From Verrucomicrobiota bacterium (lineage in GTDB: Bacteria > Verrucomicrobiota > Verrucomicrobiia > Limisphaerales > SXTU01), in assembly GCA_039796295.1 (NCBI GenBank), contig JBDKJY010000021.1, positions 34,868 to 98,867 of the forward strand: 64,000 nucleotides of DNA, read 5' to 3'. The notes below the pieces were generated by a model, which saw only the letters and a program-made list of their open reading frames with translations, made no database searches and was not told the DNA's origin. Made by a program: the position numbers and the translations under genes. Below, in pieces: positions 11,694 to 64,000 of this stretch; the stretch's first letter is position 1; the number at the start of each line of letters is the position of its first letter.

Positions 11694-11740
11694 TGAACAA
11701 CGTGAAACTGGTAACGGGCGGCGCGGAGTCGCGGCAGCGT

Positions 11741-11811
11741 CTTGGAGTGCGGCAGTCCGCTGCCGCTTTCGAGCGCGTCGGAAAAGCGCCAGAGGGCTGG
11801 CGCACTCCAAA
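11741..11811. repeat. palindromic element, TTGGAGTGCG...CGCACTCCAA family (copy 1)
   Basis: Perfect 10-bp terminal inverted repeat 11742-11751 / 11801-11810. A second copy lies at 55531-55642. Confidence 0.7.
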
Positions 11812-11839
11812 ACCTGGCGGAAGCCTTGCGCGCGTCGCG

Positions 11840-18746: not shown

Positions 18747-18835
18747 CCGGGGCAGGGAATGGGGAATAGGGAATAGGGGATAGGGGGACGGACCACGCTC
18801 GGCCCTATTACCTATTCCCCATTCCCTATTCCCGG
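18747..18835. repeat. palindromic element between the DUF58 and transglutaminase genes
   Basis: AGGGAATGGGGAATAGGGAATAGGGG on the left pairs with CCCTATTACCTATTCCCCATTCCCT on the right (about 26/27 complementary by eye). The element fills the 100-nt gap inside the operon. Confidence 0.65.
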
Positions 18836-18844
18836 TGTTCTGGT

Positions 18845-20275
18845 TCATAGCTTCGCCAGTCCCTCCGCCACCTTCCCGACTTCCAGCCGCCGGAAGCGCT
18901 CCGGTTCCGACGCCATCGGTCCCGGCGCGGGCGGCGGTGCGCCGGCTTCGGTGACGACGAAGACCATCAGCGGCACGCCTAGCTCGCGCAAGTGGCGGAC
19001 GAACTCGCGCCGTTGCTCGTCCCATTGCACGAACACGCACAGGCAACCGCTCAACTCGCCCGCGTGCTGGAGCACGAGTTGCAGCAAGGACCGAAACTCG
19101 CGGTCACGGCAGGGCTGCACGGAGGCGAGGATTTCCAGCAGTTGCTCCAAGTGCCCGACGCCCCGGCCCATCGTGAAGCAATACGCCTGCGGCCCGACGA
19201 ACATCAGGTCCAGCAGCGACTCCTGCGCCTGCACCGTGCAGGCCAGCGATGCCGCCACGCTCACCGCTTCCTCGAACACCTCGCTCGCCGCCACTGGCAG
19301 GAACGTGTCGAGGATGAGCGCGTGGCGCGTGAAGAACTCGTCCTGAAACTCCTTCACGATGGGCCGGCCGGTCTTCGCCCAGCTCGGCCAGTGAATGTGC
19401 CGGAGCGCGTCGCCGGGCCGGTAGTCGCGCAACGCGACGAACTCCTCGGACTCGCCCACGCTGGCCGCGAGCGCCACGCCGCCTTGCTGGTATTTCAACA
19501 GGCCGGGCAGCGCCAGCGGCGGGAGCGGGTAACGCTTCGGCAGGATGAGCAACGACTGCGGCAGCGGCACGCGGACGAACGTGCGGAACAACCCGAACGG
19601 GTCCGGGCACGCGACCGCCACGGCATCGAAGCGCAACACGCCGCGCCGGAGCGGAAGCAGTTCGAGCTGCACGTCAGCGGAGCCGTTGGGCGGCAGGACA
19701 GGGCAGGGGACTTCGTTGACCTTGCCCCGGACGTTCTGCCGCAAGAGCCAGCTCCAGCGGTAGAAGCCGTTATTGCGGTCATACCAGTTGCGCCGCTCCT
19801 CACCCGGTTCCGGCGTGGAGATGAATTGCGCCAGCGTCGGGCGCGGGTCGGCGAGGTCTTCGGTGACGGAGAGGCCACGCTGGGGTTTAGCCGTGAGGTT
19901 CTTCAGCGTCACGCGGTAGCTGATGGGCAGCCCGACAGAACCAAACCTCGGCAACCCGCGTTCCGCCTCCACGCGCGTCCGCGAGAACTGCGTCCCCGCC
20001 AGTGCCGCGATGAGCAGGAAGCAGAGGAAGACGAAAGCCTGGTAAGCCAGCGAGAGGTTTGTGTCCGCGCCCATCAACCCCGTGATGATGATACCGAGGA
20101 AGACGAGCCAGCCGCCCTTCGTGAAGCGCCGTCGCCACCACCAGGTGAAGGCAGCGGTGAGCCGATAGCTCGCGTAGAGGCGGCGCTGGAGCCAGGTGGG
20201 CGGAGCAGGTGAGAGAGGCTGAGGGTGTGAGGGTGTGAGCGAGGGGCCGTTTCGGTTGGGAGCTTCGGCGTTCAC
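18845..20275 (-). CDS. DUF58 domain protein
   Basis: N-terminal TM pair, then FVALRDYRPGDALRHIHWPSWAKTGRPIVKEFQDEF (the DUF58 signature). GTG start at 20275; the first 18 or so codons overlap a GTGAG-rich repeat arm, so the exact start is uncertain. Confidence 0.8.
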   Translation of the reverse strand: MNAEAPNRNGPSLTPSHPQPLSPAPPTWLQRRLYASYRLTAAFTWWWRRRFTKGGWLVFLGIIITGLMGADTNLSLAYQAFVFLCFLLIAALAGTQFSRTRVEAERGLPRFGSVGLPISYRVTLKNLTAKPQRGLSVTEDLADPRPTLAQFISTPEPGEERRNWYDRNNGFYRWSWLLRQNVRGKVNEVPCPVLPPNGSADVQLELLPLRRGVLRFDAVAVACPDPFGLFRTFVRVPLPQSLLILPKRYPLPPLALPGLLKYQQGGVALAASVGESEEFVALRDYRPGDALRHIHWPSWAKTGRPIVKEFQDEFFTRHALILDTFLPVAASEVFEEAVSVAASLACTVQAQESLLDLMFVGPQAYCFTMGRGVGHLEQLLEILASVQPCRDREFRSLLQLVLQHAGELSGCLCVFVQWDEQRREFVRHLRELGVPLMVFVVTEAGAPPPAPGPMASEPERFRRLEVGKVAEGLAKL

Positions 20276-20312
20276 GTTTTCACTCTCTCACTCTCATGCC
20301 CTCGCACTCTCA
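20221..20312. repeat. imperfect inverted repeat (GTGTGAGGGTGTG arm / CTCAC-rich arm) spanning the moxR-DUF58 junction
   Basis: GTGTGAGGGTGTG at 20225-20237 is identical to the 13-mer at 46781-46793. The opposing CACTCTCTCACTCTC...CTCTCACACC arm is at 20281-20316. Confidence 0.4.
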
Positions 20313-41020: not shown

Positions 41021-41617
41021 TCACTTCACCGACAAAACGGAGTTCCAGCCGCCGAATGGGTTCGGCGCGGCCTCGTGGGCGGCGGGGTCGGGCAGCCAGG
41101 TGCCGTCCACGACGAAGAGGTATTCGTAGCGGCCGGGGGAGAGCTTCAACTCACCTTGCCACTCGCCGCCTTTGGCAGGGTGCAGCGGCGTCGCGCCGAC
41201 CTGCCAGCCGTTGAACGAGCCGGCGACGCAGACTGCCTTGGCCGCCGGCGCGCGCAGCTTGAGCGCGACGGGCGCGGGCGTGGCAGTGGCGGTTTGCATC
41301 GCAGCCGTGGGGTTTTTCAACAGCCGCACGACCTGACCGAGCGCGGTGGCGGATTGCTTCGCGGGTGAGCGCGTGGCCTTCGGCGAACTGGTGGCGGCTT
41401 TTGGTGGTTTCATAGCTTCGGGCGGCTTTGAAACGGCTGCCTTGGCCGCAGGCGCGCGCGGCTTGGGCGCGACTGGCGCGGGCGCGGGCGCGGCGGTTTG
41501 CATCGCAGCCGTGGGGCTCTTCACCCCCCGCACCACCTGACCGAGCGCGGTGGCGGCCGACTTCGCGGGAGCCTGCGTGGCCTTCGGTGAGCTGGAGGAG
41601 GCTTTGGGAGTTTTCAT
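41021..41617 (-). CDS. CBM48 / glycogen-binding (AMPK beta-like, early-set) domain protein with duplicated Lys/Ala/Pro-rich N-terminus
   Basis: The C-terminus VCVAGSFNGWQVGATPLHPAKGGEWQGELKLSPGRYEYLFVVDGTWLPDP matches the CBM48 pattern. The N-terminus is two 68-aa repeats. Confidence 0.7.
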   Translation of the reverse strand: MKTPKASSSSPKATQAPAKSAATALGQVVRGVKSPTAAMQTAAPAPAPVAPKPRAPAAKAAVSKPPEAMKPPKAATSSPKATRSPAKQSATALGQVVRLLKNPTAAMQTATATPAPVALKLRAPAAKAVCVAGSFNGWQVGATPLHPAKGGEWQGELKLSPGRYEYLFVVDGTWLPDPAAHEAAPNPFGGWNSVLSVK

Positions 41618-41639
41618 AGGTTCAGGCGGTCTTGAAGCG
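41232..41639. repeat. 204-bp tandem duplication (about 2.1 copies)
   Basis: GGTTTGCATC at 41291 and 41495, CAT (start codons) at 41411-41413 and 41615-41617, and GCCTTGGCCGC at 41235 and 41439 are all offset by exactly 204 nt. Confidence 0.8.
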
Positions 41640-46777: not shown

Positions 46778-46850
46778 CAGGTGTGAGGGTGTGAGAGTGA
46801 GGGGGAGGAACTTGCTCTCTCCCACACCCTCACACGCTCACACCTCCTGC
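46778..46850. repeat. hairpin element (GTGTGAGGGTGTG stem)
   Basis: Perfect 13-bp stem 46781-46793 GTGTGAGGGTGTG / 46823-46835 CACACCCTCACAC. It is followed by CCCACTTTC direct repeats (46853-46890). Confidence 0.6.
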
Positions 46851-48053: not shown

Positions 48054-48137
48054 CAGTGTTCAGTGTTCAGTCGCGAACGCGGCTCGACGACCGACCGAAC
48101 TCTGGCTACTGAATACTGAACGCTGGTTACTGAATAC
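48054..48137. repeat. palindromic element, CAGTGTTCAGTG / CTGAATACTGAAC family (copy 2)
   Basis: CAGTGTTCAGTGTTCAGTC (48054-48072) versus CTACTGAATACTGAACGCTGGTTACTGAATAC (48106-48137). Confidence 0.6.
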
Positions 48138-48142
48138 TTCTC

Positions 48143-50569: not shown

Positions 50570-50685
50570 GCCACAGATGAACACAGATGAAACACAGATG
50601 GTTCCAAGTGCGGGGCGCTTTGTGCCCCAGTTACGCCTGCCTTCTACCGCCACCTATCTGTGTTTCATCTGTGCTCATCTGTGGC
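50570..50685. repeat. long hairpin element (32-nt arms)
   Basis: GCCACAGATGAACACAGATGAAACACAGATGG (50570-50601) versus CCTATCTGTGTTTCATCTGTGCTCATCTGTGGC (50653-50685), nearly perfectly complementary. The loop has its own GGGGC..GCCCC stem. Confidence 0.75.
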
Positions 50686-50716: not shown

Positions 50717-51703
50717 GTGAACCGCTTCCCCCAAGCCCTCGCCGCGCGCGGCCTCACCCTCCGGCGCGCCCCGCTGCACACGCTCCAAATCAACGTCGGG
50801 CGTAAGTGCAACCAAGCCTGCCGCCACTGTCATGTGGACGCCGCGCCGTGGCGCACCGAGATGATGGACGCGCCCACCGCCCAGCGCGTCGCTGAGTGGA
50901 TTCGTGCGCATCGGCCCGCCGTCGTGGACCTCACGGGCGGCGCGCCGGAATTGAGCGAGCACTTCCGCTTCCTCGTCGAAACCGCGCGCGCGTGCGGCTG
51001 CCATGTCATTGACCGCAACAACCTCACCATCATCGAGACCGAGGCGTTCGGCTGGCTGCCGGAGTTTCTCGCGGCGAACCAAGTGGAAGTCATCGCCTCG
51101 TTGCCCTGCTACTTGGAGGAGAACGTGAACGCCCAACGCGGCGACGGCGTCTTCGCCAAGAGCCTTCGCGCGCTGCGGAAGCTCAACGCCCTCGGCTACG
51201 GCTCGCGCCTGCCGCTGAACTTGGTTTACAACCCGCTCGGCCCGACGCTCCCGCCGCCGCAAGCCGAGCTGGAGGCCGACTACAAAACCGAGTTGCGCGC
51301 CCGCTTCGGCATCGAGTTCACCGGCCTTTTCACGATTACGAACCAACCCATCGCGCGCTTCGCCGAAGACCTGCGCGCGCTCGGCGAGTGGGACGCTTAC
51401 CTAGAGTTGCTCGCCAACGCCTTCAACCCCGCGACCGTCCCCGGCCTCATGTGCCGCAGCACGTTGAGCGTCGGCTGGCGTGGTGAACTCTACGACTGTG
51501 ACTTCAATCAGATGCTGGGGATGGCGATGAGTGCGGAATGCGGAATGCGGAATGCGGAGTCCCCCGGTCAGCCGCTTCATCTCTGGGAGGTCACGCCAGC
51601 AGAACTGACTGACCGTGCCATCCTGACCGGAGAACACTGTCTCGCCTGCACGGCGGGCGCGGGGAGCAGTTGTGGTGGGGCCGTGGTGGTCAACCCAGCT
51701 TGA
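50717..51703 (+). CDS. radical SAM / Cys-rich domain protein, ArsS-like (arsenosugar-biosynthesis type)
   Basis: LQINVGRKCNQACRHCHV (CxxxCxxC), LTGGAPEL, VGWRGELYDCDFNQML, and C-terminal HCLACTAGAGSSCGG. The start is uncertain: the GTG at 50660 lies inside the hairpin arm, so the GTG at 50717 is preferred. Confidence 0.7.
   Translation: MNRFPQALAARGLTLRRAPLHTLQINVGRKCNQACRHCHVDAAPWRTEMMDAPTAQRVAEWIRAHRPAVVDLTGGAPELSEHFRFLVETARACGCHVIDRNNLTIIETEAFGWLPEFLAANQVEVIASLPCYLEENVNAQRGDGVFAKSLRALRKLNALGYGSRLPLNLVYNPLGPTLPPPQAELEADYKTELRARFGIEFTGLFTITNQPIARFAEDLRALGEWDAYLELLANAFNPATVPGLMCRSTLSVGWRGELYDCDFNQMLGMAMSAECGMRNAESPGQPLHLWEVTPAELTDRAILTGEHCLACTAGAGSSCGGAVVVNPA
51533..51560 (+). repeat. heptanucleotide tandem repeat inside the ArsS-like CDS
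   Basis: GCGGAAT x3 (51533-51553) plus GCGGAGT (51554-60). It encodes AECGMRNAES. Confidence 0.8.
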
Positions 51704-54193: not shown

Positions 54194-55213
54194 ATGAAAT
54201 CACTGTTCCGCACTGCCCCAGCCCTTGCCTTCGCCACGTTGCTCGCCGCCCCGCTCGCCCACGCCGAGGTGAACGTCGTCGAGAAGGTTGCCACCGACGT
54301 TTACTTCCACGAGGGCGACATCGGTCGCCACGGGCATTGCAACAACGGCTGGATCGTCTTCAGCGACTACGTGCTCGTCATTGACGCGAACTTCCCCTCG
54401 GGCGCGCAGGTCGTGCTCCCGAAAATCAAGGCGCTCACCGACAAACCCATCAAGTTCGCCTTCGACACCCATCACCACGGCGACCACGCCTACGGCAACC
54501 AAGTCATGCACGAAGCCGGCGCGACCATCGTCGGGCACGCGGGCGTGCTGGCGGAGATGAAGAAATACGAGACGAACTTCTTTACTGGCAAAGGCCCGGG
54601 CCGTTGGGAAGACGCCGCGAAGGGCCGCAAGGATGTCGCCGCCAGCAAGCTCCGCCCGCCCAGCCTGCTGTTCGAGGAGAAGATGGCCTTCGACGACGGC
54701 ACGCACCGCGTGGAACTGCTGCACCTCGGCGTCGCGCACACGCACGGCGACGGCTGGGCTTGGCTGCCGAAGGAGCGCATCGTCTTCACCGGCGACGCTT
54801 GCGTGAACGGCCCCTACAACTACATCGGCGACGGCAACATCCACGAGTGGATTAAGACCCTCGACAAGGTCATCGCGCTCAAGCCGCTGAAGGTTTGCCC
54901 CGCGCATGGCCCGAGCGGCGGCCCCGAGGTGCTGGCGAACCAACAGCACTATTTCAAATCTCTCCTCGCCGAGGTGAAGAAGCTCAAGGACGCCGGCAAG
55001 ACCGCCGCCGAAGTGCAGGCCGCTTCCAACACGATCAAGGAAACCCTCCGCAAGGACGAGCGCATCGCCCACTACATCGGCCAGTTCATCGACGCGCAGG
55101 TGCAGAAGGCGTGGACCGAGATGGGCGGCGCGGCCTTCCCGGCGAAGAAGCAGGCGCAGGCGGAGCCGGTGAAGCTGAAGGCCCGGGAACTTCTCGCGGT
55201 CGCGCGGGAGTGA
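54194..55213 (+). CDS. MBL-fold metallo-hydrolase, secreted
   Basis: MKSLFRTAPALAFATLLAAPLAHA, then FDTHHHGDHAYGN (HxHxDH). The ORF-track start at 53636 is an over-extension. Confidence 0.8.
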   Translation: MKSLFRTAPALAFATLLAAPLAHAEVNVVEKVATDVYFHEGDIGRHGHCNNGWIVFSDYVLVIDANFPSGAQVVLPKIKALTDKPIKFAFDTHHHGDHAYGNQVMHEAGATIVGHAGVLAEMKKYETNFFTGKGPGRWEDAAKGRKDVAASKLRPPSLLFEEKMAFDDGTHRVELLHLGVAHTHGDGWAWLPKERIVFTGDACVNGPYNYIGDGNIHEWIKTLDKVIALKPLKVCPAHGPSGGPEVLANQQHYFKSLLAEVKKLKDAGKTAAEVQAASNTIKETLRKDERIAHYIGQFIDAQVQKAWTEMGGAAFPAKKQAQAEPVKLKARELLAVARE

Positions 55214-55230
55214 CCGCCAGCGGGGGAAAA

Positions 55231-55461
55231 GCAGGTGACAGGCTGTTTCAGGCAGGTTCCTGAGCCGTCCGGGAGGTTGCCCGCGTGACTCAGGCAGCTG
55301 TCCGAACAGAAAAGGCAGCCGCCCAAACGGACAAGACAACTGCCCCAACTGAAAAGACAGTTGCCCGAGCATAAAAGGCACCTGCCCGAATGAAAAAGGC
55401 AGCCTCCCGATCTAAAAAGGCAGTCGACCGAACCTCCCCGGCAGCTCCCGGGACCGCTCAG
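55231..55461. repeat. 11-unit tandem array of a 21-bp repeat, approximate consensus GCAGCTGCCCGAANNGAAAAG
   Basis: Units start at 55231, 55252, 55273, 55294, 55315, 55336, 55357, 55378, 55399, 55420 and 55441, with no indels in register. The central units end in AAAAG. Confidence 0.8.
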
Positions 55462-55530
55462 TCACTCGCCTGAGCCACAGCCAGTTGCCGCAACGACGCC
55501 GGCGAGGTGGATTCGATTCCTCGCGCCAGT

Positions 55531-55642
55531 GTCTTGGAGTGCGGCGGCCCTCCGCCGCTTTTTCGGGGGGCGCACGAACCTCCGCACATTCCCTTCCCGC
55601 ACGCCACGGGAAGAGCGCCCGAGAACTGGCGCACTCCAAGAC
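55531..55642. repeat. palindromic element, TTGGAGTGCG...CGCACTCCAA family (copy 2)
   Basis: Perfect 13-bp terminal inverted repeat GTCTTGGAGTGCG (55531-55543) / CGCACTCCAAGAC (55630-55642), with an inner hairpin CTTCCCG..CGGGAAG. Confidence 0.7.
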
Positions 55643-55737
55643 GCGTCGCGAGTCAGTGGGCCACCGCCGTTTGCCTCGTCCGGCAAGCCGCCCGAATTCC
55701 CTTCCCACCCATCGCGTCCATCCCGCCGCTTATCGCC

Positions 55738-57063
55738 ATGCTCGACATCCGCCTGAATCCAAACCCGCACCGCTTCTGCAACGGCTGGGCCCGCCGCGAC
55801 TTCCTCCGGGTCGGCGCGCTCGCCCCACTCGGCCTCGCGCTGCCGTCGCTGCTCGCGGCGGAGAAGGCCGCTGGCAACGACAAGAAAGCCCGCGCCAAGT
55901 CCGTCGTGCTCGTCTATCTCGGCGGCGGCCTCTCGCACCACGACAGCTTTGATCTGAAGCCCGACGCGTCCTCCGAGATTCGCGGCAAATACACCGAGAT
56001 TCCCACCAACGTCCCCGGCCTGCACATCGGCGAGTTGCTGCCCAAGATGGCCAAGACGATGGACAAGCTCACGCTCGTCCGCTCCGGCGCGCACAACAAC
56101 GACCATCACGAGACCGCCACGAACTGGGTGCTCTCCGGCCGCTTCGGCTCCGCGTTCGGCGATTACCCGGCGATGGGCGCGGTGGTCGCGGAGCGCACCG
56201 GTTTCCGGGGCGTGATGCCGCCTTACGTGGCCGTGCCGCGCAACCCGTCCTTCACCTGGGAGCTGGGGAAAAGCGCCTTCCTCGGCGGCCGCTGCGAATC
56301 CTTCAAAGCCGGCGATCCGAACGCGGAGAACTTCAAAGTCCGCGACCTCTCGCTGCCCGCCGACGTGAAGCGCGAGAACGCCGAGCGCCGCAAGTCCTTG
56401 CTCGGCGCGGTGGACAATCTCGCGAAGCGCATCGAGGGCAACGATCAGCTCGCGACCTATGGTGAGTTCCAGCAACGCGCCGCCGAGATGGTCCTCTCGC
56501 GTGAGGCGCAGAACGCCTTCGCCCTCGAACAGGAGACGGAGAAGCTGCGCGATGACTACGGGCGGAACACCTTTGGCCAAAGCGTTCTGCTCGCGCGTCG
56601 CCTCGTGCAGCACGGCGTGCGCTTCGTGACGGTGAACTACGGCGGCTGGGACCATCACGCGAAGATTTTCCCCGGCCTGGAGAAGAAGCTCCCCGAGTTT
56701 GATCAAGGTTTCTCGACCTTCCTCCACGACATGGACGCGCACGGTTTGCTGAAGGACACGCTGGTCCTGTGCATGGGCGAGTTCGGCCGCTCGCCGAAAA
56801 TCAACAAGGACATCGGGCGCGACCACTGGGGCCAGGCGGCGAGCCTGCTCTTCGCCGGTGCTGGCGTGGCGCGCGGCAAGGTCGTGGGCGCGACCGACCG
56901 CACCGGCGCCTTCGTGACTGACACGCCGGTAAAACCCGCCGATGTGGCGTGGACCATCTACGACAGCCTCGGCCTCGACCCGCGCGGCGAAATCCACACG
57001 CCGGATGGGCGGCCCGTGGGCATCCTCGATGAGGGGCGGCTGGTGACGGAGCTGTTCGGCTGA
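55738..57063 (+). CDS. DUF1501 domain protein (second copy)
   Basis: RRDFLRVGALAPLGLALPSLLA, SVVLVYLGGGLSHHDSFDLKPDA, GGWDHHA and GEFGRSP. ATG at 55738; the ORF-track start at 55507 lies in the repeat element. Confidence 0.85.
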   Translation: MLDIRLNPNPHRFCNGWARRDFLRVGALAPLGLALPSLLAAEKAAGNDKKARAKSVVLVYLGGGLSHHDSFDLKPDASSEIRGKYTEIPTNVPGLHIGELLPKMAKTMDKLTLVRSGAHNNDHHETATNWVLSGRFGSAFGDYPAMGAVVAERTGFRGVMPPYVAVPRNPSFTWELGKSAFLGGRCESFKAGDPNAENFKVRDLSLPADVKRENAERRKSLLGAVDNLAKRIEGNDQLATYGEFQQRAAEMVLSREAQNAFALEQETEKLRDDYGRNTFGQSVLLARRLVQHGVRFVTVNYGGWDHHAKIFPGLEKKLPEFDQGFSTFLHDMDAHGLLKDTLVLCMGEFGRSPKINKDIGRDHWGQAASLLFAGAGVARGKVVGATDRTGAFVTDTPVKPADVAWTIYDSLGLDPRGEIHTPDGRPVGILDEGRLVTELFG

Positions 57064-62805: not shown

Positions 62806-62993
62806 TCACCTCCCGTGCGTCTCGATCTCCCACTCGCGGTGGGCGAGGTAGCCCAGCCTGAGGAGAACCCCAAGCGCCACGAAGTTGAACGCCCACCCCG
62901 CCCCGCCGCTCCCCGCCGCGAAGGCCTTCCCATTGGCCGCGAGCTAACCACTCGCCACCACACTCAACAGCCGGAAGAACTGCCGCTTGGGAT
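62806..62993 (-). pseudogene. disrupted 3' continuation (TM tail) of the COR-domain gene
   Basis: A frame shifted by one nt relative to the COR ORF reads GVAVAVFVGMLVLNPKRQFFRLLSVVASG-TAG(62944-62946)-LAANGKAFAAGSGGAGWAFNFVALGVLLRLGYLAHREWEIETHGR-TGA(62806-62808), with high GC3. Confidence 0.4.
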
Positions 62994-64000
62994 TCAACAC
63001 CAGCATCCCGACAAACACCGCCACCGCCACCCCACCCACACCCAAGCCACGAGGCTGTTCAGCGTCAACAGCAGCCACGTGCCCGCCCCCGCCGCCACGC
63101 CCCCGCCCACCGACGCCACCACCCAGCTCTTCCACCACGGCGGCTTCGCAACCGGCGGCGAAATGGCGGGTTCAGCCGCCGGAGGGGATACGTTCGTGAT
63201 CGTTGGCTGCGTCAACGTCTGCCCGACCTGACTGCCAGTGACATTGCCGACCACTCGAATGCTCCGGTCATCGCCCATAAATTTTGGCTCGCTGCCGGGT
63301 GGATAGTTGTGGATGTGCGTCACCCCTCGGTCGCGCCGTTCCGCATCCCGGAAGTCCCGCTCTGTCGCTCCGTTCAACGCATCAGCCACACTCACCGGCA
63401 CAAGCTTTCCTTTTACCTTCACCTCATGCACAGCCGTCCCTTTGCCATCGAGCAACAGGAGCGTCTCGTAGTCGAGAAACTCTCCGAGGTATCCCGGCAC
63501 CGGCACCAGCTCCTCCACAGCGAGGTTGCCGCTGAAGGACCGGTGGATATCCGCCAGCGTCCCGCGAAAGAGCGCGAGGAACTCCCGCCGCTCCCGCCCG
63601 GTGCCGCCCCGGATCAGGATGTCCAGCCGCGCGTCTTCCGGCTCGCTGCGCACGAGCGCTTCACAGGCCCCCTGCTTGAACTTCGCCCCCGTCCGCCACA
63701 GGCAATGCCTCGCGATGAGCCCGTGCAGCCGCACCATCAGGCGGCCGATCACACTGCCGGGGAGCACCCCGTATTGGTAACGGAAGCCCAGCGCTTCCTG
63801 CCAGTCCCCCGTGTCCACCTCATCCTTGTGCAGCAGGTCGGGCAGGAACCACCGGTCCGGCTCCCCGTCAAAGGCGAAGCAAATCTCGAAGCGCCGCATC
63901 ATCGCGAGGATGAAGTCCTCTTTGTCCTGCGGATAGCGCTCCCGTCCTCCCGGCAGTTCCGCCAGCGAACGCCGCATATCGCCGCGCGTCAGCATTCCGC
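62994..64000 (-). CDS. Roco-type protein, COR (C-terminal of Roc) domain plus linker and TM segment; 5' end outside the window
   Basis: DKEDFILAMMRRFEICFAFDGEPDRWFLPDLL...LGFRYQYGVLPGSVIGRLMVRLH...CLWRTGAKF fits the COR pattern. The frame is still open at nt 64000. Confidence 0.65.
   Translation of the reverse strand, partial: GMLTRGDMRRSLAELPGGRERYPQDKEDFILAMMRRFEICFAFDGEPDRWFLPDLLHKDEVDTGDWQEALGFRYQYGVLPGSVIGRLMVRLHGLIARHCLWRTGAKFKQGACEALVRSEPEDARLDILIRGGTGRERREFLALFRGTLADIHRSFSGNLAVEELVPVPGYLGEFLDYETLLLLDGKGTAVHEVKVKGKLVPVSVADALNGATERDFRDAERRDRGVTHIHNYPPGSEPKFMGDDRSIRVVGNVTGSQVGQTLTQPTITNVSPPAAEPAISPPVAKPPWWKSWVVASVGGGVAAGAGTWLLLTLNSLVAWVWVGWRWRCLSGCWC

Follow-up and report, generated by a model that had tools for sequence, protein, structure and literature searches.

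Several classes of short direct-repeat arrays are known from bacteria. Replication iterons of plasmids of the R6K, RK2, F, and pPS10 type are asymmetric direct repeats of approximately 17 to 22 bp, placed two helical turns apart, each with its conserved bases gathered in two blocks the size of a groove and separated by variable positions; the repeats co-vary with the plasmid's own Rep protein. Partition centromeres, such as sopC of F and parC of R1 and pSK41, are arrays of short repeats located upstream of the gene for the small protein that binds them. MIRU-type interspersed minisatellites of mycobacteria form intergenic arrays, sometimes within operons, at several loci per genome and with variable copy number. 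At the RNA level, the protein-titrating RNAs CsrB/RsmZ and CrcZ and the antitoxin RNA ToxI carry a short motif that is repeated on one strand. Here, we describe a 21-bp tandem array from a Verrucomicrobiota genome that has something in common with each of these systems.

The window is the whole stretch of DNA that was analyzed, 64,000 nucleotides in length, and all coordinates below are given on its plus strand. Tandem Repeats Finder detected a repeat with a period of 21 bp and 6.3 copies at 55292-55423, in which 72% of positions match and indels amount to 0%. Identity at a lag of 21 was 0.60 over 55231-55461 and 0.69 over 55290-55436; all other lags from 15 to 29 gave values of 0.22 to 0.36 within the array, and the highest identity reached over lags 5 to 59 in shuffled controls (n = 2,000) was 0.41. 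Across the 64 kb, 147-bp segments averaged a lag-21 identity of 0.318 (standard deviation, 0.05), and the next-best segment reached 0.48. Scanning the whole window with a degenerate unit pattern at up to two mismatches returned seven sites against a chance expectation of 1.7, six of them inside the array; a single array is present in the 64 kb available from this organism.

The first-pass annotation, made from the sequence alone, had counted 11 strictly phased units. All 11 starts were indeed in phase with no indels, but only six to seven units are well preserved and the flanks are decayed: the six central units match the consensus at 16 to 20 of 21 positions, and the five outer ones (three on the 5' side, two on the 3' side) at 10 to 14. 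The array core (55290-55436, plus strand) comprises seven 21-bp units when read in the register of the family, AAAGGCAnnTGCCCGAAnnnA, as delimited by Tandem Repeats Finder and lag-21 identity, and its consensus within the window is AAAGGCAGCTGCCCGAACAGA. Every core unit agrees with the wider family described below at 13 to 16 of 16 informative positions, which equals the agreement of the arrays at loci L069 and L070. Unit alignment placed degenerate in-phase units on the 5' side at 55231-55289 (10 to 12 of 21 matches to the consensus) and on the 3' side at 55437-55461 (12 to 14 of 21), both on the plus strand. The 5' degenerate stretch can alternatively be read, from inverted matches, as inverted unit-like sequence at approximately 55243-55263. 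A weak inverted repeat also brackets the good units, with 55431-55447 being 82% complementary to 55262-55278. The array is less GC-rich than its surroundings (GC of 0.53 to 0.56 versus 0.66 to 0.71 in the flanks). As the first-pass annotation had stated, it is not CRISPR-like: its units abut head to tail without spacers.

The array occupies part of a 524-bp spacer (55214-55737) between two plus-strand genes and, as had been stated, lies next to a palindromic element. Upstream is a gene for a secreted protein of the metallo-beta-lactamase fold (MBL; 54194-55213; signal peptide, MKSLFRTAPALAFATLLAAPLAHA), whose homology to relatives ends at the stop codon. Downstream is a DUF1501 gene encoding a Tat-type N terminus (55738-57063), for which homology to relatives sets in approximately 7 bp ahead of the ATG. 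A small plus-strand hairpin, GCGAGG-N11-CCTCGC, can be read from the sequence at 55502-55524, past the array and ahead of the palindromic element. A tRNA-fragment reading of GGATTCGATTCC at 55508-55520 was rejected, as the arms do not pair as a T-arm. The palindromic element itself spans 112 bp (55531-55642, plus strand) with the outer stem GTCTTGGAGTGCG / CGCACTCCAAGAC and encloses a terminator-like hairpin (55541-55558) followed by TTTTT, with hairpin and T-run together covering 55541-55563. The second copy lies at approximately 11738-11815, and the two copies differ by a compensatory change in the inner hairpin. Because the nonarray part of the spacer has a GC content of approximately 68% and the palindromic element has this second copy in the window, the spacer is, as judged from its sequence, native to the Verrucomicrobiota genome and not a misassembly. 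No sigma-70-like promoter was detected in the window, no DnaA box (TTATCCACA, at most one mismatch) was found in the spacer, and no Rfam covariance model matched near its gathering score in the window or at 13 array loci. Within approximately 12 kb on each side, the neighbors are housekeeping genes (release factor, IGPS, response-regulator phosphatase, radical SAM, GH/DUF4838, PPC, TrpRS, and FabH), and no rep, par, integrase, or transposase gene is present in these 24 kb.

Relatives were compared at 58 loci, 47 of which were retrieved via the MBL protein and 11 via the DUF1501 protein. All 47 MBL loci come from Pedosphaera/Limisphaerales-type Verrucomicrobiota metagenome-assembled genomes, 17 of them at 83 to 92% amino acid identity. 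The gene that follows MBL differs from that in the window at 47 of 47 loci, and nucleotide homology ends no more than approximately 10 bp past the stop codon. The DUF1501 relatives, at 94 to 95% identity, are instead preceded by a gene of the BlaI type or by one for a DUF7133 cytochrome. Neither tandem units nor the spacer was present at any of the 58 loci, and an exact-protein look-up returned no identical MBL or DUF1501 protein on record. By these alignments, the spacer is lineage specific and sits at a synteny breakpoint whose edges coincide exactly with the borders of the two genes. Since the array is absent from the sampled relatives, it does not serve the MBL or DUF1501 gene as a conserved regulator, and any role of the window copy would be specific to its lineage. 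Absence from close relatives, which was part of a refuting condition that the first-pass annotation had set in advance, is what was found among the sampled loci. That provision did not foresee conservation of the unit in distant bacteria.

Metagenome contigs were scanned once with the window-derived pattern AAAGRCANNTGCCCNANNNNAAAAGRCA, which covers 1.3 units. Fourteen stretches were returned, of which five were isolated chance matches and nine were tandem arrays of 3 to 16 units with exact 21-bp spacing and a common consensus (L060, L062, L063, L064, L066, L069, L070, L071, and L072). Four more arrays, at L082 and L083 and two on L084, emerged by an independent route, through open reading frames (ORFs) that had been miscalled on them. 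The sample thus consists of 14 arrays, these 13 and that of the window, and carries an ascertainment bias, as the scan pattern was taken from the window. Spacing is 21 bp or a multiple thereof throughout the family, with a single 22-bp unit in L083. The host contigs have a GC content of 32 to 56%, compared to 66% for the window genome, and the named hosts are Bacteroidales (Paludibacter for L060 and "Bacteroidales bacterium" for L082), an assignment that rests on the taxonomy of metagenomic contigs. The contigs, of the Bacteroidales type and others, represent gut and environmental bacteria unrelated to the window organism. The arrays have a polarity: the 5' end decays into AT-rich sequence, and the 3' end is sharp and often reads AAAGGnAGAT. 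In the searchable literature, nothing relevant was found for the unit sequence or for bacterial 21-bp or 21-nucleotide repeats, and the family is undescribed there. Overall, the window array is very probably a real, noncoding member of a dispersed family of 21-bp arrays with the unit AAAGGCAnnTnCCCGAAnnnA. The window copy is a single orphan inside a lineage-specific spacer at a rearrangement junction.

Across 94 units, A7 and C13 are invariant, positions 1 to 4, 10, 12 to 14, 16 to 17, and 21 are strongly conserved, and positions 8, 9, 11, and 18 to 20 vary freely. G15 and A17 agree between the window and the rest of the family, although neither was fixed in the search pattern. The conserved positions form two blocks, AAAGGCA and TnCCCGAA, which lie approximately ten positions, or about one helical turn, apart and recur every 21. 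In the window, with its 66% GC, conserved A/T positions retain their base at 84%, and in hosts with 32 to 35% GC, conserved G/C positions do so at 72 to 98%; the GC content of the variable positions is 31 to 41% in L069 and L070 and 69 to 74% in the window and L064. The conserved bases withstand the composition of the host whether it is GC-rich or GC-poor, which speaks for selection on the unit, or for its recognition, and against neutral persistence.

The core GGCAGCTGCC has a palindromic look, and an RNA hairpin, a palindrome, or a symmetric dimer site was considered for it. This was rejected, as no base-pair covariation was found: positions 6 and 11 can pair in 56% of units, a share equal to that of interunit and shifted controls, position 11 is free among G, A, and T, and positions 5 and 12 do not covary within or between units. 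The lack of any dyad or hairpin constraint fits asymmetric sites arranged head to tail. The low folding energy (z = −4.9) probably arises because the cores, being self-complementary, can pair from one unit to another.

One protein-coding gene, and only one, recurs as a neighbor of family arrays. It encodes a helical protein of 104 amino acids (103 to 104 across copies; MATKTYSxEITDTQVM...WKEFGIxDKR) and stands beside 6 of the 13 other arrays, namely, those at L063, L064, L066, and L069 and both arrays on L084. Transcription of the gene leads away from the array's decayed 5' end, with the start codon approximately 50 to 125 bp from the first unit. Homologues come from Prevotellaceae, Dysgonamonadaceae, and Tannerella, distant ones (45 to 48% identity) occur without an array, and a hidden Markov model search found none in the window or at the Verrucomicrobiota loci that were retrieved. 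No Pfam, PHROG, PADLOC, or NCBIfam family fits the protein convincingly, the isolated marginal matches being far below cutoff. An AlphaFold model (pLDDT, 93) predicts a long helical hairpin, for which there was no PDB match and in which no ribbon-helix-helix (RHH), helix-turn-helix (HTH), or other recognizable DNA-binding fold was seen. On L084, two modules of array and small gene lie between cassettes of a common orientation, whose products are an RHS C-terminal toxin (DUF4258) and the immunity protein Imm40. Cassette arrays of the rAID type in Bacteroidales consist of an XerD-like recombinase followed by co-oriented immunity cassettes split by a conserved repeat. Two reports describe rAID clusters as rows of cassettes with "conserved intergenic sequence motifs" (10.1101/471110; 10.1101/2025.05.03.651265). 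The arrangement on L084 resembles such rows of cassettes, and nothing similar to rAID is present in the window.

We favor, at a probability of roughly 0.45, a reading in which the units constitute an array of protein sites with a candidate sequence-specific reader and in which DNA rather than RNA would be the bound form. Each unit would be one recognition site for this putative protein, which may read AAAGGCA and TnCCCGAA in two successive major grooves about one helical turn apart. The two-turn repeat would then align protomers head to tail on one face of the duplex and, by analogy to plasmid iterons, could build a cooperative nucleoprotein array. Duplex DNA is favored because of the two-block geometry, the position of the arrays upstream of gene starts, and their inconsistent orientation to transcription: where neighbors are readable, 11 of 11 arrays lie within approximately 300 bp upstream of some gene start, with no fixed orientation to that gene. 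The candidate reader may be a host regulator or part of the machinery of a selfish element, and it is not encoded beside the window array. An array of protein sites on one helical face had already been put forward in the first-pass annotation; the two-block geometry and the absent covariation make that proposal plausible, but the binding protein was not identified, and the sole recurrent neighbor, the 104-amino-acid protein at 6 of 13 arrays, has no recognizable DNA-binding fold. Strand asymmetry, depletion of T at the variable positions 18 to 20, and the polarity of the arrays are less easily explained by binding to duplex DNA.

An element that acts as RNA is a possible but less probable explanation. 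The A-rich strand would be transcribed as the 3' untranslated region of MBL or as a small RNA ending at the terminator at 55541-55563, and the transcript would provide an unstructured platform of many sites that titrates or recruits an RNA-binding protein, as do the CsrB, RsmZ, and CrcZ sponges, or that serves as a protein-controlled leader. AT skew in the array of up to +0.66 (A over T) and the T-poor variable spacer positions are consistent with this, and the absence of pairing covariation would suit a single-stranded platform. In the window, the array is followed on the same strand by the intrinsic-terminator-like hairpin, and at L083 a hairpin and T-run lie between the array and the metNIQ-like operon upstream of which it is found. 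The array is also co-oriented with an upstream or downstream gene in several cases, lying past the 3' end of such a gene in the window, L062, and L071 and 30 bp upstream of an SDR gene in L072. Other loci are difficult to reconcile with a transcript of this kind. The array at L060 interrupts a trp operon on the strand opposite to its genes, with trpG on one side and trpD on the other; at six loci the array is antisense to both neighbors; and at neither L063 nor L070 was a terminator-like site detected past the array. Moreover, there is no match to an Rfam family, and the GGA or CA motifs of sponge RNAs are not general in the unit.

Our preferred reading, a protein-site array on DNA, also has to be weighed against the family being a functionless interspersed minisatellite, a slippage-prone repeat that arrived through recombination or horizontal transfer and survives as junk DNA within a spacer made by rearrangement, with no dedicated reader. 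We consider this unlikely. It would account for a lineage-specific spacer exactly at a synteny breakpoint, for the presence of another repeated element in that spacer, and for the decay of the outer units. Higher-order 42-bp variants within arrays are typical of unequal exchange, and the heterogeneous contexts, including the insertion in the trp operon, would likewise be expected of it. Against it, 14 to 16 positions are kept in hosts of 32 to 66% GC despite mutational bias in both directions. Where one assembly holds several arrays (L069 and L070 come from a single assembly, and the two on L084 share a contig), each keeps the consensus and differs from the others at variable positions only. 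The obvious vectors also lack the repeat, as BLAST searches of plasmid and phage collections, including 72,556 plasmid records, gave no match to the array and the pattern had no match in viral contigs.

Intrinsic curvature alone, with the phased A-tracts serving as a promoter upstream element or as a site for a nucleoid protein, is very unlikely to explain the family. An A4-5 tract does recur every 21 bp in the window array, and a wedge model predicted an axis deflection of 67 degrees for the window core compared to 35 ± 19 degrees in shuffled sequences, 16 of 300 of which reached 67. In the same model, the arrays at L066 and L069 are predicted to be strongly curved, whereas those at L060, L064, L070, and L072 are not above shuffled sequences, and curvature is therefore probably not the conserved property. 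The invariant G/C-rich blocks would also be left unexplained. With a modest predicted bend in the window and inconsistent curvature across the family, the earlier proposal of intrinsically bent DNA appears weak as the main explanation.

The coding potential of the array was likewise evaluated. Stops occur in five of the six frames of the window array, and those named previously (TGA in unit 2, TAA in unit 7, and a minus-strand TAG at 55412-55414) are where they were said to be. A third minus-strand frame, CLFxSGx, had been overlooked and is open across the whole array. No start codon for this frame lies near the array, and the frame extends through the MBL gene on the antisense strand, forming an ORF of 393 codons (54200-55381) of a kind typical of GC-rich DNA. 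Across the family, each of the six frames is stopped in at least one array, and frames that are open by chance lack start codons. With the open frame as the query, phmmer read 1.84 billion representative proteins and found no intact heptad-repeat homologue; its 15 matches at an E value of ≤1e-3 were weak, belonged to no real family, and consisted throughout of low-complexity heptad stretches from unrelated proteins, most of them eukaryote-like. When the +2 translations were searched as a profile, only seven miscalled ORFs were recovered. Although the unit length equals seven codons, the one minus-strand frame is open over the window array, and the variable positions 5, 8, 11, and 20 are third codon positions of the +2 and −2 frames, mean information differs little by codon phase (1.45, 0.94, and 1.06 bits), and the reading as a decayed heptad-repeat gene, which the first-pass annotation had entertained, was rejected as highly improbable on the grounds of frames, start codons, and two protein searches.

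An ordinary local minisatellite would imply nothing beyond its own locus; here the unit is instead common to Bacteroidales-type contigs of 32 to 56% GC and a Verrucomicrobiota genome of 66% GC. Conservation of the unit against opposite compositional pressures suggests that some factor reads its sequence. We therefore raise, tentatively and on sequence comparison, the idea that AAAGGCAnnTnCCCGAAnnnA could define a new class of horizontally spread chromosomal element, a multisite DNA or RNA platform for a putative conserved factor, which in Bacteroidales would be linked to the 104-amino-acid protein and to rows of RHS toxin and immunity genes and which would be kept under selection in a 66%-GC member of the Verrucomicrobiota. 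If so, the window copy would be the first sign of a system with a 21-nucleotide unit that crosses phylum boundaries. Discovery of the reader would add a novel type of chromosomal iteron or regulatory array, or a novel repeat RNA, to the repertoire of gut and freshwater bacteria, and the association with the 104-amino-acid protein and the RHS toxin/immunity genes gives experiments a concrete starting point. As far as the window is concerned, the message is more modest, that of an orphan, lineage-specific insertion at a rearrangement junction.

Compared to RNAs with a repeated motif, the array shares an A-rich repeat on one strand and, in the window, an intrinsic-terminator-like site after it. 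It differs in its inconsistent orientation to transcription and in the lack of an Rfam match. Unlike CsrB/RsmZ and CrcZ, it has GGA only in some arrays (L062, L064, and L072), no hairpin covariation, and no general CA motif. Unlike ToxI, it has a unit of 21 nucleotides instead of 34 to 48, and the next gene encodes a DUF1501 protein and not one of the ToxN/AbiQ type.

Similarity to the parC and sopC centromeres is found in the 6 of 13 arrays that lie just upstream of the gene for the 104-amino-acid protein. In contrast to those centromeres, there is no ATPase of the ParA/ParM type, the small protein shows neither an RHH nor an HTH fold, and its gene is missing from the window. Like MIRU elements, the family has tandem arrays scattered in intergenic regions, sometimes within an operon, with variable copy number and, in hosts other than that of the window, at two places in one assembly (L069 and L070) or on one contig (L084), but the sequence is unrelated, the unit is 21 bp rather than 46 to 101 bp, the range extends beyond one genus to both Bacteroidales and Verrucomicrobiota, and there are no small coupled ORFs.

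The array is similar to plasmid iterons in its period of 21, the absence of indels, the head-to-tail arrangement, and the two blocks with variable positions between them. It differs in that no Rep gene is nearby, the spacer has neither DnaA boxes nor an apparent AT-rich unwinding region (GC of approximately 68%), none of the 72,556 plasmid records matched, arrays reach up to 16 units, and the unit is found in different phyla. Together, and by analogy, the array would resemble iterons and repeat centromeres in how it works and MIRU elements in how it is distributed, but it lacks defining traits of each of these systems.

On the minus strand, a 393-codon open reading frame (54200-55381) runs antisense to the MBL gene and extends across the 21-bp array in the CLFxSGx frame, the heptad frame that is open through the repeats. 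This is almost certainly a spurious antisense ORF of GC-rich DNA, and one that gene callers could annotate.

The palindromic element of the window occurs in two copies (55531-55642 and approximately 11738-11815), each with a 13-bp outer stem (GTCTTGGAGTGCG/CGCACTCCAAGAC) that encloses a GC hairpin followed by a T-run. Between the two copies, the inner hairpin carries a compensatory change (GCGGCAG..CTGCCGC versus GCGGCGG..CCGCCGC). The element has no match in Rfam; its appearance suggests a structured repeat of this genome, either REP-like or carrying a terminator. Further intergenic stem-loops, with arms built of short tandem repeats, were located at 18754-18833, 20220-20295, 46780-46845, 48054-48138, and 50572-50683; in one example (GGGAATA)n lies opposite (TATTCCC)n, and in a second three copies of CACAGATGAA lie opposite three of TTCATCTGTG. 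Long hairpins with tandem-repeat arms seem to be a recurrent style at gene ends of this genome. Other repeats in the window comprise a 204-bp tandem duplication detected by TRF (41233-41636; 2.0 copies, 83% identity), which partly overlaps a minus-strand ORF; a perfect run of 3.9 copies of the heptamer TGCGGAA (51532-51558) immediately ahead of the DUF4838 glycoside-hydrolase gene; and, close to the window end, a C-rich cluster of short repeats (62890-63120; CCCCGC, CACCC, and a 20-mer present 2.2 times).

Two main-family arrays of the same WGS assembly (QMCD01), in L069 (4727-4768) and L070 (2459-2479), begin directly after a shared 18-nt sequence, TAATTAGTGTATCTTTTT, which could be a leader or promoter; the gene for the helical 104-aa protein is present in L069 only. 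In AT-rich hosts, several family arrays are adjoined by GC-rich islands with CCGCCCGAA/TTCGGGCGG motifs (oriented coordinates: L063, 1780-1960; L066, 1470-1556; L071, approximately 820-900), and this island motif resembles the TGCCCGAA block of the 21-bp unit.

Periodicity of 21 bp was also observed in sequence of other types. Loci L076 to L080 contain a 21-bp periodic stretch (approximately 3623-3928 in L076) with a GTACC core that differs from the main-family unit; its annotation is that of a heptad-repeat protein of 101 aa that lacks a Pfam assignment. This stretch lies directly upstream of, and on the same strand as, a gene for another 104-aa protein homologue; therefore, the small gene accompanies 21-bp arrays belonging to at least two sequence types. 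A GC-rich contig (L081, approximately 290-480) bears about nine tandem units of GTCAAGCAAWCGCCGCTGGCC, unrelated to the main family, and an SDR gene follows approximately 110 bp downstream. The main-family array of L072 is likewise near an SDR gene, ending 30 bp ahead of it.

In locus L084 (1643-5771), co-oriented cassettes form a row consisting of the 104-aa gene, an RHS C-terminal toxin with DUF4258, small putative immunity genes, and Imm40, where one main-family array precedes each cassette. This row may be related to clusters known from Bacteroidales, either the rAID clusters, immunity cassettes with conserved intergenic motifs, or the orphan toxin-immunity clusters.
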